64,000 nt of DNA from Deltaproteobacteria bacterium. Lineage in GTDB: Bacteria; Myxococcota_A; Polyangia; Polyangiales; Houyiibacteriaceae. The position numbers and the translations under genes were made by a program. The stretch lies in the NCBI GenBank assembly GCA_034670305.1, contig JAXMNT010000010.1:1-64000 (forward strand), in the 5' to 3' direction. Below the pieces are notes generated by a model that worked only from the letters and a program-made list of their open reading frames with translations, was not told where the DNA came from and searched no databases. Position 1 is the stretch's first letter; the number at the start of each line of letters is the position of its first letter. This document shows, piece after piece, positions 15,636 through 57,833 of the stretch.

Positions 15636-15736
15636 CGAAGTCGCAACGCCACGCGTTCGGGGACCGCTTCCTGCCGCTCGGTCGTTTGCCAAGAAGGCGC
15701 AGAGCGGCAGGCGCTGGGACGATGTGGCGACGGAGC

Positions 15737-15890
15737 CAGAATCAGAACCAGAACCAGAATCAGAATCAGCGGCAGCGGCATCGGCAGCGGAAGCGGCAGC
15801 GGCAGCGGCAGCGGCAGCGGCAGCGGCATCGGAAGCGGAAGCGGAAGCGGAAGCGGCAGCGGAAGCAGAAGCAGGAGCGAAAGCAGAACG
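15737..15890 (+). repeat. Hexamer microsatellite (CAGAAY then GCGGCA/GCGGAA)
   Basis: Read directly; downstream flank of four-helix-bundle gene 1. Confidence 0.9.
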
Positions 15891-15921
15891 GCCGGCGCCC
15901 GCGTGGACGCCGGCCCCGCCC

Positions 15922-16236
15922 TCAACGGCTGAGCTTGTAGAGCATCGCGCACACGTGGTCGCACTGGTCAAGCAGCCCCGCGTCGAGGTCGATGTAGCCG
16001 AAGACTTCAGCGAGCTGCATCGCCGCCTTCAGCTCGCTGCACTCCCCATAGGCAATCGAGAACTTGTCATGGCAACGCAGCCCTCGCGCCTGCCGAGCCT
16101 CCGCGATGTTCAACACCACGCTCTGCGCCGCCCGCTGCATCTGCGAAGCGAGCGAAGCGTCGTGCTTCCGCACGGCCGGCAGGACCTGAGCGCGAAGCGA
16201 GCGCACCAGTTCAAAAGAAGTTCGTAGAACGATCAT
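15922..16236 (-). CDS. Four-helix-bundle protein (23S rRNA IVS protein / bAvd-like family), copy 1
   Basis: LASQMQRAAQSVVLNIAE...FSIAYGECSE motif; 104 aa. Confidence 0.9.
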   Translation of the reverse strand: MIVLRTSFELVRSLRAQVLPAVRKHDASLASQMQRAAQSVVLNIAEARQARGLRCHDKFSIAYGECSELKAAMQLAEVFGYIDLDAGLLDQCDHVCAMLYKLSR

Positions 16237-16259
16237 CGGAGACCCCAGTGTGAAGACGA

Positions 16260-16467
16260 CCGAGCGACGTTGCCCGGCGGCCGCAGGCCGCCGTCGTCTG
16301 GCGGGTCAGGGGTCAAGGGCGAAGCCAGCCTTCCGAAGGCTGGGGGCCGCAGGCCACCCTTGAGGCCTGGCACGCCAGATGACACGCTTGATCACCCGCC
16401 GGGCACCACCCACCCCCCAAGGTCGTTCCCGAATCCGAAGGAGAGGGAGCCGAATCCGAAGGAGAGG
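16260..16467 (+). promoter_or_regulatory. Conserved stem-loop element with -35/-10-like boxes and an SD-like motif (copy 1)
   Basis: Stem 16293-16319/16357-16383; TTGAGG-N17-CACGCT; GAAGGAGAGG present twice. Confidence 0.6.
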
Positions 16468-16471
16468 CTAC

Positions 16472-16569
16472 ATGCGGAAGCGGAAGCGGATGCGGAAGCG
16501 GAAGCGGAAGCGGCAGCGGATGCGGAAACGGAAGCGGCAGCGGCAACGGAAGCGGTAGTGGTAGCGGTA
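16472..16569 (+). repeat. Hexamer microsatellite (GCGGAA/GCGGCA/GCGGAT)
   Basis: Read directly; same orientation as 15737-15890. Confidence 0.9.
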
Positions 16570-16579
16570 AACCCCCAGC

Positions 16580-56448: not shown

Positions 56449-56659
56449 GGGGATTTGTAGCGCGCTCCATAAGTCGCGCCCATCTCGTGTGCGATCGAGA
56501 GGCGTGATGTAGAGCACAGCCGATGCCGATGCCGATGCCGATCTCTCCGCGCAGGGGATTGGTCGGTGACTGCCAACGGTCACGGCCCCCGTGAAGTCTG
56601 GACGGCATCGGCCTGGCCCTGCGCGCCGGCATGACTGCGGCCGGCGGCGTCCCACATCG

Positions 56660-56733
56660 CGGCGTCGGCTCGGTGTCGGCTTCAGCTTCGGGATCGGGGT
56701 CGGCGGGTATCGGTCGGCTTCGGAGTCGGCGTC
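56660..56733 (+). repeat. Degenerate (TCGGCN)n tract
   Basis: Downstream flank of four-helix-bundle gene 2; same orientation as 57398-57745. Confidence 0.6.
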
Positions 56734-56776
56734 ATGGAATCGGGCAGTGCGTCCGGAGACGCACCGCCCGCGCGGC

Positions 56777-57088
56777 CTAGGACCGACTCAGCTTGAACAA
56801 CATCGCGCAGACGTGGTCCGCGAGGTCGTACACGTCCTCCCCTGCCTCGACGTACCCCATGACCGCCGCGACCTGCAGGGCGGCCTTTACCTCGCGCGCC
56901 TCCCCGAGAGCACGCGAGAACCCGTCCGGGTTCCTCCCGCCCCGCGCACTCCGAGACTCCGCAATCAGTAGAGGAACAGCCTGCGCGGCCCGCCGCAGCT
57001 GCGACTTCAGCGACGCCTCGCGAATGCGAGGCAAGACCTCACGCACCAGGAGCGAGAGAAGTAGAAGCGACTTGTCGAATACCAGCAT
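56777..57088 (-). CDS. Four-helix-bundle protein (23S rRNA IVS protein / bAvd-like family), copy 2
   Basis: LKSQLRRAAQAVPLLIAE...FSRALGEARE; shares DHVCAML(Y/F)KLSR with copy 1. Confidence 0.9.
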   Translation of the reverse strand: MLVFDKSLLLLSLLVREVLPRIREASLKSQLRRAAQAVPLLIAESRSARGGRNPDGFSRALGEAREVKAALQVAAVMGYVEAGEDVYDLADHVCAMLFKLSRS

Positions 57089-57109: not shown

Positions 57110-57386
57110 CCGAGCGTGAACTCGCCCGAGGGCGCGAAGCGCCCCAGTGGTCGGCGGGGTGGCGGGTCAAGGACGAGCAAGCGCCGCTTCAGCGGCGCGC
57201 CAGCGAAGCGGCGGGCATCCCGCCGGGCCTCTTTCCTGGGGGCACAGCCCCCAGACCCCGTCCCAGTGACGCGGCTCGATCGCTTCGCTCGACTTCGCCC
57301 CGTCGGTGGCCTCCTTGAGGCGCCGCCCCGCCGACCGCTACGCTGGACCATCCATCGGGCCAGCCAACCTCCACGAGAAGGAGAGG
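57110..57386 (+). promoter_or_regulatory. Conserved stem-loop element with -35/-10-like boxes and an SD-like motif (copy 2)
   Basis: Stem 57146-57173/57312-57339; TTGAGG-N18-TACGCT; GAAGGAGAGG. Confidence 0.6.
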
Positions 57387-57397
57387 TTGAGCGAGCG

Positions 57398-57745
57398 GCC
57401 TCGGCTTCGGCTTCGGCTCCGGCTTCGGGTTCGGCTTCGGCTTCGGTGTCGGCTTCGGCTTCGGTGTCGGCTTCGGCGTCGGTGTCGGCCTCGGCTTCGG
57501 CTTCGGCTTCGGCATCGGTGTCGGCTCCGGCTTCGGCTTCGGCTTCGGCTTCGGCTTCGGCTTCGGCTTCGGCTTCGGCTTCGGCTTCGGCGTCGGCGTC
57601 GGCGTCGGCTTCGGCTTCGGCGTCGGTGTCGGCGTCGGGGTCGGCGTCGCTCAGCTTCGGCGTCGGCGTCGGCTTCGGCGTCGGCTTCGGCTTCGGCGTC
57701 GGCTTCGGCTTCGGCTTCGGCGTCGCGGCTTCGGCTTCGGTTCGG
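57398..57745 (+). repeat. Long hexamer microsatellite (TCGGCT/TCGGCG/TCGGTG)
   Basis: About 350 bp, read directly. Confidence 0.95.
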
Positions 57746-57762
57746 CCTGGGCTTCGTTAACG

Positions 57763-57792
57763 GAAAAAGCCCAGCCGCTGGGCTGGGCTTCT
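57763..57792 (-). terminator. Rho-independent terminator of the metalloprotease-like gene
   Basis: AAGCCCAGCC-GCTG-GGCTGGGCTT hairpin followed by a T-tract on the minus strand. Confidence 0.8.
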
Positions 57793-57833
57793 CCGCAGTC
57801 GTCGTCGCCGTGGCGGCGACTCAGACGTTCAGA

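Follow-up and report, generated by a model that had tools for sequence, protein, structure and literature searches.

Comparison with described promoter hairpins and PF05635-associated systems

To our knowledge, only conjugative plasmids and a few phages have so far yielded single-strand or hairpin promoters. The N4-type hairpin promoter has a 5–7 bp stem with a 3-nt GNA-type loop, and is used by a phage virion RNA polymerase. In Frpo/ssi elements, as described in the consulted parts of PMC11541004, one DNA strand folds and thereby presents −35 and −10 boxes to the host RNA polymerase, and the folded strand is the template of the gene served, which is located 5' of the hairpin. Here we describe a structured element which is present in two copies in a 64,000-nucleotide stretch of a Deltaproteobacteria bacterium genome (assembly GCA_034670305.1, contig JAXMNT010000010.1, positions 1 to 64,000; the window), and which an initial annotation had put forward as a candidate Frpo/ssi-like single-strand promoter or a new non-coding RNA (ncRNA). 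Coordinates are window positions, and the element is described on the + strand. The genes around both copies are on the − strand, with each element directly upstream of a gene of the PF05635/TIGR02436 family, and the strand described is thus the template strand of the adjacent gene. The modelled fold is a three-way junction with a closing stem (P1), a stem of 26–29 bp (P2), inner mini-hairpins and an unpaired joining strand (J).

As read here, the element would work like the Frpo/ssi elements and the N4 hairpin promoters in principle, without belonging to either family. It shares with Frpo/ssi a stable stem with −35/−10-like boxes at a spacing of 16–19 nt (53/57 distinct homologues), and the folding strand is the template of the adjacent gene, which is the geometry required by a Frpo-type single-strand promoter. 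In contrast with Frpo/ssi, the element is chromosomal, with 39 copies dispersed between ordinary genes, is G+C-rich and lacks an A+T-rich UP element, with G+C-rich mini-hairpins being found upstream of the −35-like box instead. A second stem closes the bubble in which its −10 box is unpaired, whereas the −10 box of Frpo is within the stem, and the gene the element would serve encodes an Avd-like four-helix-bundle protein, rather than ssb, psiB or an anti-defence protein. A leading-region or oriT location was not found for the 39 copies, for which no search for oriT or relaxase genes was made. With regard to phage N4, the G4-type origins and RSF1010 ssiA, the consulted parts of PMC13037366 describe GNA mini-hairpins (GGA and GAA, with CCGAAGG in ssiA) at the phage G4 origin, at ssiA and in the N4 promoters, where they mark the starts of polymerase or primase. 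Hairpins of this type are abundant in the element and its flank (GGCC-GNA-GGCC, GCGAAGC and TCCGAAGGA). Those of N4, G4 and ssiA are single short hairpins for phage or plasmid enzymes, whereas the mini-hairpins of the element are combined with a 27-bp stem, a three-way junction and sigma-70-like boxes.

The family of the adjacent gene suggests two further comparisons. Both window genes match TIGR02436, which is named 'four helix bundle protein', and the closest solved structure to the protein is 2GSC, the representative structure of PF05635 (PMC10053308, consulted parts). The same parts of PMC10053308 and those of PMC11270868 describe the PF05635 family as resembling Avd, the accessory protein of diversity-generating retroelements (DGR), and as otherwise uncharacterised, and report its members from intervening sequences of rRNA genes. 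Like the 23S rRNA intervening sequences, the element is associated with the PF05635 protein family and has a long gene-associated stem. The stem of those sequences is formed by two ends around the open reading frame (ORF), whereas both arms of the element are 5' of the ORF, and the units of element and gene are located between protein genes and arrays of hexanucleotide repeats. As both arms are 5' of the ORF and there is no rRNA gene in the window according to an Rfam scan, the element is not an rRNA intervening sequence. The likeness to DGRs consists of the resemblance of PF05635 to Avd (PMC10053308, consulted parts), and Avd works with a structured nucleic acid. The genome contains three matches to RVT_1 (contig:position C23:86418, C10:168437 and C67:18832), none of which is beside a unit, the nearest being C67:18832 at about 5 kb from the unit at C67:13340. 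Since a reverse transcriptase is not adjacent to the units, the element is not a DGR, and a retron or DGR reading was rejected. The match at C10:168437 is on the contig of the window, at 168 kb and thus outside the window. A last comparison is with 6S RNA, an open-promoter mimic which shares with the element the open-complex-like arrangement of long stem, central bubble and closing stem; unlike 6S RNA, the element is multi-copy, gene-linked and leaning to DNA, and has no Rfam match.

A conserved structured family upstream of Avd-like genes

The element represents a real, conserved and previously undescribed structured family. In minimum-free-energy folds of the window copies, P2 pairs 16293–16319 with 16357–16383 in copy 1 and 57146–57173 with 57312–57339 in copy 2, which reproduces the pairing given in the initial annotation. 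The same folds contain its GG/GG mismatch, a 2×2 internal loop which is located beside a TCAAGG/CCTTGA helix in both copies. The two GNA-triloop hairpins and the 16/21 match between the 21-mers following the stems likewise read in the sequence as had been stated. As DNA, copy 1 folded with z = −4.45 on the + strand and −4.21 on the − strand, and copy 2 with z = −5.88 and −5.19, respectively, with 0/200 shuffles folding as well in each of the four cases. Folding of longer stretches as RNA gave z = −3.27 (copy 1) and −4.07 (copy 2) for the + strand, and z = −0.65 and −2.96 for the − strand.

The window genome (7.9 Mb in 105 contigs, with protein relatives in Myxococcota/Myxococcales metagenome-assembled genomes (MAGs)) contains 47 matches to PF05635, of which 39 are above the curated cut-off, and the TCAAGG...CCTTGA helix is found upstream of most of them. 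A covariance model (R1) built from 31 copies (alignment A1) detected 38 sites in this genome, and the addition of copy 2 gives 39 copies on 31 contigs, which belong to three sequence subfamilies: A (copy 1-like), B, and C (copy 2-like). Twelve of the PF05635 matches, about a quarter, have no element upstream (e.g. C14:16486, C15:131727, C1:298705 and C83:18949). Outside the window genome, R1 had matches in 7/100 relatives, and a second model (R2) in 14/150 genomes sampled from the order, representing six families, and in 2/150 genomes sampled from the phylum; these three samples overlap, and there are 18 carriers besides the window genome, mostly of the same order. Multi-copy carriers in the order sample have at least 19, at least 17 and at least 14 R2 sites, with no more than 19 sites being scored in any genome. 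No replication-strand bias was apparent by eye in G012, the one carrier with a single contig (at least 17 copies), in which neighbouring copies are on both strands.

Across the family, the order of parts on the + strand is the P1 5' half, a linker, the P2 5' arm ending in GGGTCAAGG, two or three inner mini-hairpins, the P2 3' arm (CCTT[G/T]A...), J and the P1 3' half, with a total length of 130–250 nt. The family alignment A3 comprises 58 matches, 57 of them distinct, from 20 lineages. In A3, which is fitted to the model and therefore favours the structure, standard pairs occupy 91.7% of the cells, versus 32.0–46.3% with the partners slid, double-sided changes occur in 36/43 pairs (6/6 in P1), and the covariation score of 0.609 (versus 0.053–0.096) was reached by 0/500 shuffles. 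The P2 arms differ widely in sequence among the three subfamilies and yet still pair, so that the structural conservation which had been proposed from the two window copies is borne out by covariation across the family. J measures 13–17 nt in 56/57 sequences and the template-side linker 13–18 nt in 50/57, the latter usually forming a GNA-triloop mini-hairpin, and the inner region varies from 27 to 140 nt. RNAalifold did not recover P2 from a plain MAFFT alignment, in which the arms of the three subfamilies are out of register. The possibility of an already described leader or terminator family found no support, as the covariance models of Rfam 15 at the gathering score gave 0 matches in the whole window, and around both copies there were only chance-level matches (E ≥ 0.46). 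Similarly, no structured element upstream of PF05635 genes or hexanucleotide arrays in myxobacteria is described in the consulted parts of the literature searched.

Every intact copy of the element is directly 5' of a four-helix-bundle gene of PF05635/TIGR02436 (Avd-like, "23S rRNA IVS protein"). Among the foreign loci first fetched, 17/19 had an adjacent four-helix-bundle frame, and all 17 had the same arrangement when read by eye. The start codon was found 8–61 nt past the end of the model in 33/36 assessable sequences. Instead of the housekeeping context assumed in the initial annotation, the element has a constant place at the 5' side of an Avd-like gene cassette, which is itself repeated.

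Promoter-like boxes and GNA loops on the template strand

The −35/−10-like boxes read from the window, TTGAGG-N17-CACGCT (16360–16388) and TTGAGG-N18-TACGCT (57315–57344), recur on the same strand in most of the family. A box TT[G/T]A[C/G]N, followed after 16–19 nt by NANNNT beginning at the stem end, is present in the 53/57 sequences mentioned above, 48 of which were found by the pattern, with the other five being subfamily A copies which the pattern mis-anchored and which read TTGAGG-N17-CACGCT. The other strand contains TTGAC[C/T] in 55/57 sequences, but NANNNT at 15–19 nt from it in 0/55. Some lineages have better −10 boxes (GAGAAT, AAGAAT, GACAAT and CACAAT). Conservation of J is limited to positions 1, 2 and 5, which are A in 57/57, C in 52/57 and T in 53/57 sequences, respectively. 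The conserved A is the first unpaired base past P2, and pairing within the −10-like box is limited to its first base. In 24/57 sequences the −35-like box has a G-to-T change (TTGAC to TTTAC) which breaks a pair and is never compensated.

Triloops make up 119/170 of the hairpin loops, of which 85/119 read GNA on the + strand and 89/119 are closed by C-G, and the GNA loops noted in the window are therefore the prevailing type in the family. The consulted parts of PMC3201870 describe d(GNA) loops with such closing as very stable in DNA, and by this analogy the GNA triloops of the element can be read as a signature of very stable DNA mini-hairpins. Taken together, the evidence for the element leans to DNA over RNA.

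A proposed hairpin promoter acting as DNA

We favour the reading that the element is a hairpin promoter of the four-helix-bundle gene which acts at the level of DNA, working like the Frpo or phage N4 promoters, and put its probability at roughly one in three. Frpo promoters operate on this principle of a folded single strand (PMC11541004, consulted parts). If the + strand became unpaired from its complement, either single-stranded or extruded, the fold would rebuild a sigma-70-type promoter in a form resembling the open complex. The −35 box and spacer would be duplex within P2, the duplex would end at −12 (fork at −12/−11), and the −10 box, with A at −11 and T at −7, would be unpaired at the start of J, in a bubble of about 15 by 16 nt for which P1 would provide the downstream duplex. 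As the boxes are on the 3' arm, the polymerase would read the 5' arm toward the gene, and would go on 3' to 5' along the + strand into the four-helix-bundle gene, producing its mRNA. Observed are a covarying fold, boxes confined to one strand, the type of loop and the linkage to the gene, and from these we infer an active DNA form, its use by RNA polymerase, and some cause which renders the strand single. A chromosomal many-copy family of this kind would widen the class of single-strand promoters, and would offer a first way into the function of the PF05635/Avd-like proteins, a large family that is uncharacterised.

Several observations weigh against a hairpin promoter. There is no known source of single strands at 39 scattered sites of the chromosome, and an inner region of 27–140 nt is long for simple cruciform extrusion. 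The template-side linker tends toward a hairpin rather than a free strand, and the alignment behind the covariation was, as mentioned, fitted to the model. The CACGCT and TACGCT of the window copies match the sigma-70 consensus at only 2–3 of 6 positions, and a generic sigma-70 scan of both window regions returned 0 sites, making the −10-like box a weak sigma-70 box in these copies. In ordinary duplex DNA, the boxes face the array, away from the gene. In 23/30 units (GC3 heuristic), the nearest upstream ORF has the same orientation as the four-helix-bundle gene, and read-through sense RNA over the element is therefore likely. Folding energy barely separates the strands, the + strand being the stabler one in 35/57 sequences with RNA and 39/57 with DNA parameters (among the copies of the window genome, the antisense strand is favoured in 26/34, a weak signal), and subfamily B and similar lineages have the wobble polarity of the other strand. 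A stem of 30–34 bp upstream of distant four-helix-bundle genes in Myxococcota MAGs does not contain a TTGAC box. Finally, blastn (word size 11) of 15922–16480 against 72,556 plasmid records, which did not include reference Frpo sequences, gave no match, there was no similarity to phage records, and no sign of a conjugative leading region was seen, which leaves the proposed likeness to plasmid leading regions without a counterpart. For the single-strand promoter as originally proposed, this means that the fold, boxes, geometry and triloops have held up, and the wobble argument (see below), the housekeeping context and the similarity to plasmids have not.

A more elaborate version of the hairpin promoter, which we think rather improbable, is a promoter that switches direction: the duplex would be read outward into the array, and the unpaired strand inward into the Avd-like gene. 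The strand might become unpaired in a replication gap, during repair or on DNA uptake, or else by extrusion that supercoiling drives and the GNA mini-hairpins nucleate, upon which the unpaired −35/−10 arm would pair with its inverted copy. About 40 sites of the chromosome would then be sensors of single-stranded DNA, each turning on a four-helix-bundle protein, and this protein may act on the adjacent repeat arrays.

Alternative explanations

The competing readings predict different 5' ends of transcripts. The main rival to a DNA-level promoter is a sense-strand RNA leader of the four-helix-bundle mRNA, often produced by read-through, which we regard as a real possibility without preferring it. 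In such a leader P2 would be an RNase III-like processing site, comparable to the stems of rRNA intervening sequences, or an autoregulatory protein-binding site. The fixed position directly 5' of Shine-Dalgarno sequence and ATG, the strong covariation and the co-oriented upstream ORFs are all in keeping with a leader, as are the sense terminator which closes the unit and the occurrence of PF05635 proteins in rRNA intervening sequences (PMC11270868 and PMC10053308, consulted parts), even though the stem of the element does not flank the ORF as it does there. In the distant MAGs, the sense 3' arm of the stem has GGAGG just before the ATG. Pairing between the Shine-Dalgarno sequence and the P2 arm does not add to this, as the mean longest helix was 5.30 versus 5.42 in shuffled sequences, with p ≤ 0.05 in 2/23; sequestration of the Shine-Dalgarno sequence by the P2 arm was thus rejected. 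An RNA leader also leaves the strand-specific −35/−10-like boxes and the uncompensated G-to-T change unexplained.

Wobble polarity and loop type bear most directly on an RNA leader. The initial annotation had noted that all wobble pairs are G-T on the + strand, and hand pairing of the window copies agrees with this (two in copy 1 and two in copy 2). Across the family this does not carry over: in separate folds there are 74 stacked G-U pairs on the + (template) strand and 58 on the other, with nine lineages leaning one way, eight the other way and three being equal. Subfamilies A and C and some genomes lean to the + strand, and one class of copies has the sense-strand polarity that suits a leader. 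The terminator hairpins of 33 distinct units have a clear sense-strand G-U polarity (53 versus 9), and since 74 versus 58 is nothing like this, the element is without the polarity that RNA hairpins have in this genome. An apparently strong + strand wobble signal in the model-fitted alignment (85 G-U versus 29 A-C cells, lineages 42 versus 20), which had been read with one helix and one column dropped, was not confirmed by strand-neutral tests; a strand-neutral arm alignment gave 56 versus 68 wobble cells and is poor, with 147 gaps. The loops of the element are UNC on the sense strand, whereas the terminators have tetra- or pentaloops, using UNCG-type and other tetraloops. We know of no RNA stability motif consisting of UNC triloops. 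If the element is an RNA leader after all, it is a new, strongly covarying structured family without an Rfam entry, which goes together with a single gene family and with an unusual genome-wide system comprising 928 hexanucleotide arrays.

In another explanation, which we consider doubtful, the element is an ordinary duplex promoter of sigma-70 type firing away from the gene into the hexanucleotide array. The inverted copy of −35, spacer and positions +4 to +12, formed by the 5' halves of P2 and P1, would then be an operator or a supercoil-sensitive cruciform. The genome contains 928 merged tandem arrays of period 6 or 12, totalling about 150 kb, and an array is located within 150 bp of the far side of the element, and thus downstream of the boxes, in 34/39 copies versus 2% of random positions; by eye, this was also the case at 21/23 loci in other genomes. 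A duplex promoter would fit the confinement of boxes and spacing to one strand, and makes an exotic single-stranded state unnecessary. It does not explain P1 and P2 covariation between segments 40–200 nt apart unless the DNA extrudes, and it gives no account of why linkage and spacing to the four-helix-bundle gene are constant; in addition, the window copies have a weak −10 box and a consistent ORF in the array was not found. A small ORF in the array (MRKRKR..., 28 aa) was rejected as a general feature, as a start in range is present in about a third of 37 copies and the peptides differ.

It is also quite unlikely that the element is a signal of a mobile four-helix-bundle cassette, namely a strand-specific DNA hairpin for a trans-acting enzyme such as an HUH Y1 transposase-like protein, with the cassette being copied into regions of hexamer arrays. 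The 39 leaders fall into three subfamilies of similar, in some cases identical sequence, the units are embedded in arrays, other small repeats are inserted in some copies, and triloops of the DNA type are common. Furthermore, at 4/39 sites the ORF is deleted and a remnant with leader and terminator hairpin is kept (C1:200927–201070, C18:54462–54596, C54:5125–5285 and C22:10036–10175). The genome has eleven matches to Y1_Tnp (HUH), in frames of 233–249 aa, but by coordinates none of these is adjacent to a unit, the closest being C15:125984 at 2.6 kb from the PF05635 match C15:123159, which also argues against REP/RAYT or IS200/IS605 ends. Terminal repeats, target duplications and empty sites were not found for the cassette, the element is at one of its ends only, and the promoter-like boxes are unexplained by mobility.

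Least likely, and in our view very improbable, is an antisense ncRNA, folded as RNA, whose start would be inside the four-helix-bundle gene at its 5' end or next to it, for although the + strand of copy 1 folds better as RNA (z = −3.27 versus −0.65), class I copies have their wobble polarity on the + strand and the GNA loops are on that strand too, no conserved promoter was found by eye upstream of P1 on the + strand, overall polarity and an Rfam match are absent, and 39 ncRNA copies bound to one gene family would be unusual.

The two window units and associated repeats

The unit of copy 1 begins with a terminator-like hairpin (GGCCGGCGTCC-ACGC-GGGCGCCGGCC, 15890–15915, − strand) directly after the stop codon of the four-helix-bundle gene (15922–16236, − strand), which encodes 104 aa and matches PF05635 (23S_rRNA_IVP, Avd-like) and TIGR02436 with E-values of 8.1e-15 and 5.8e-16, respectively. 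A spacer with a Shine-Dalgarno-like GGGG (16237–16270, − strand) separates the ATG from the element. On the + strand, the P1 5' half (16271–16280) is predicted to pair with the P1 3' half at 16396–16405, and the linker contains the mini-hairpin P6 (GGCGGCC-GCA-GGCCGCC, 16276–16292), which shares 5 nt with P1, so that the two are alternative pairings. The P2 5' arm (16293–16319), ending in the near-invariant GGGTCAAGG, is followed by the inner mini-hairpins GCGAAGC, CCAGCCTTC-CGA-AGGCTGG and GGCC-GCA-GGCC (16320–16356), and by the P2 3' arm (16357–16383), which contains the −35-like TTGAGG (16360–16365) and the 17-nt spacer. In the −10-like CACGCT (16383–16388), C16383 forms the last pair of P2 and A16384 is the first unpaired base, with J spanning 16384–16395 in the DNA fold. 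Beyond P1, a C-rich tract with two TCCGAAGGA mini-hairpins with GAA triloops, terminating in GGCTACA (16406–16471), leads up to a GCGGAA-type hexanucleotide array (16472–16575) on the far side of the element.

In the unit of copy 2, the four-helix-bundle gene (56777–57088, − strand) encodes 103 aa and matches PF05635 with E = 1.3e-10 and TIGR02436 with E = 6e-11. The whole element is located at 57118–57366 on the + strand (76.3 bits), with TTGAGG at 57315–57320 and TACGCT at 57339–57344, and on its far side there is a CGGCTT-type array (57400–57800, approximate bounds). The inner region of this copy is 146 nt long, versus 62–64 nt in its nearest paralogues, and thus has about 83 nt extra.

Counting the two arrays just mentioned, arrays were noted in the window at 15690–15890, 16472–16575, 56600–56770 and 57400–57800. 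A recurring motif, CATCCTCTCCTTCGGATTCGG, is often found between one array and the next; on the opposite strand it reads AAGGAGAGGATG and looks like a ribosome-binding site and start codon. At 16472–16558 (+ strand), an ATG at 16472 follows AAGGAG at 16461 and opens a 28-codon frame through the array (MRKRKRMRKRKRKRQRMRKRKRQRQRKR), and the array of copy 2 contains an (RL)n frame with a TTG start.

The distant four-helix-bundle genes mentioned above (L114, L116, L117, L120 and L121, from MAG records labelled Myxococcota/Bdellovibrionales) have a different, near-perfect stem of 30–34 bp upstream. Its gene-proximal arm has the GGAGG 9 nt before the ATG, and for these five sequences, which are related, pairing of the stem is better on the antisense strand.

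Small repeats of other kinds are found within some elements. The extra part of the copy 2 inner region (57174–57311) holds a hairpin, ...GGGACGGGGTCTGGGGGCTGTGCCCCCAGG..., which recurs near another PF05635 match on contig C43 and is likely to be a small repeat in its own right. Another such repeat (GGGAGGAGRCCGGAGGGGCTTG...CCCCTCAG) interrupts P6 in one leader and takes the place of the distal half in two others, with its sites in the window genome being C19:96456–96705, C68:36086–36298 and C28:6857–7072.

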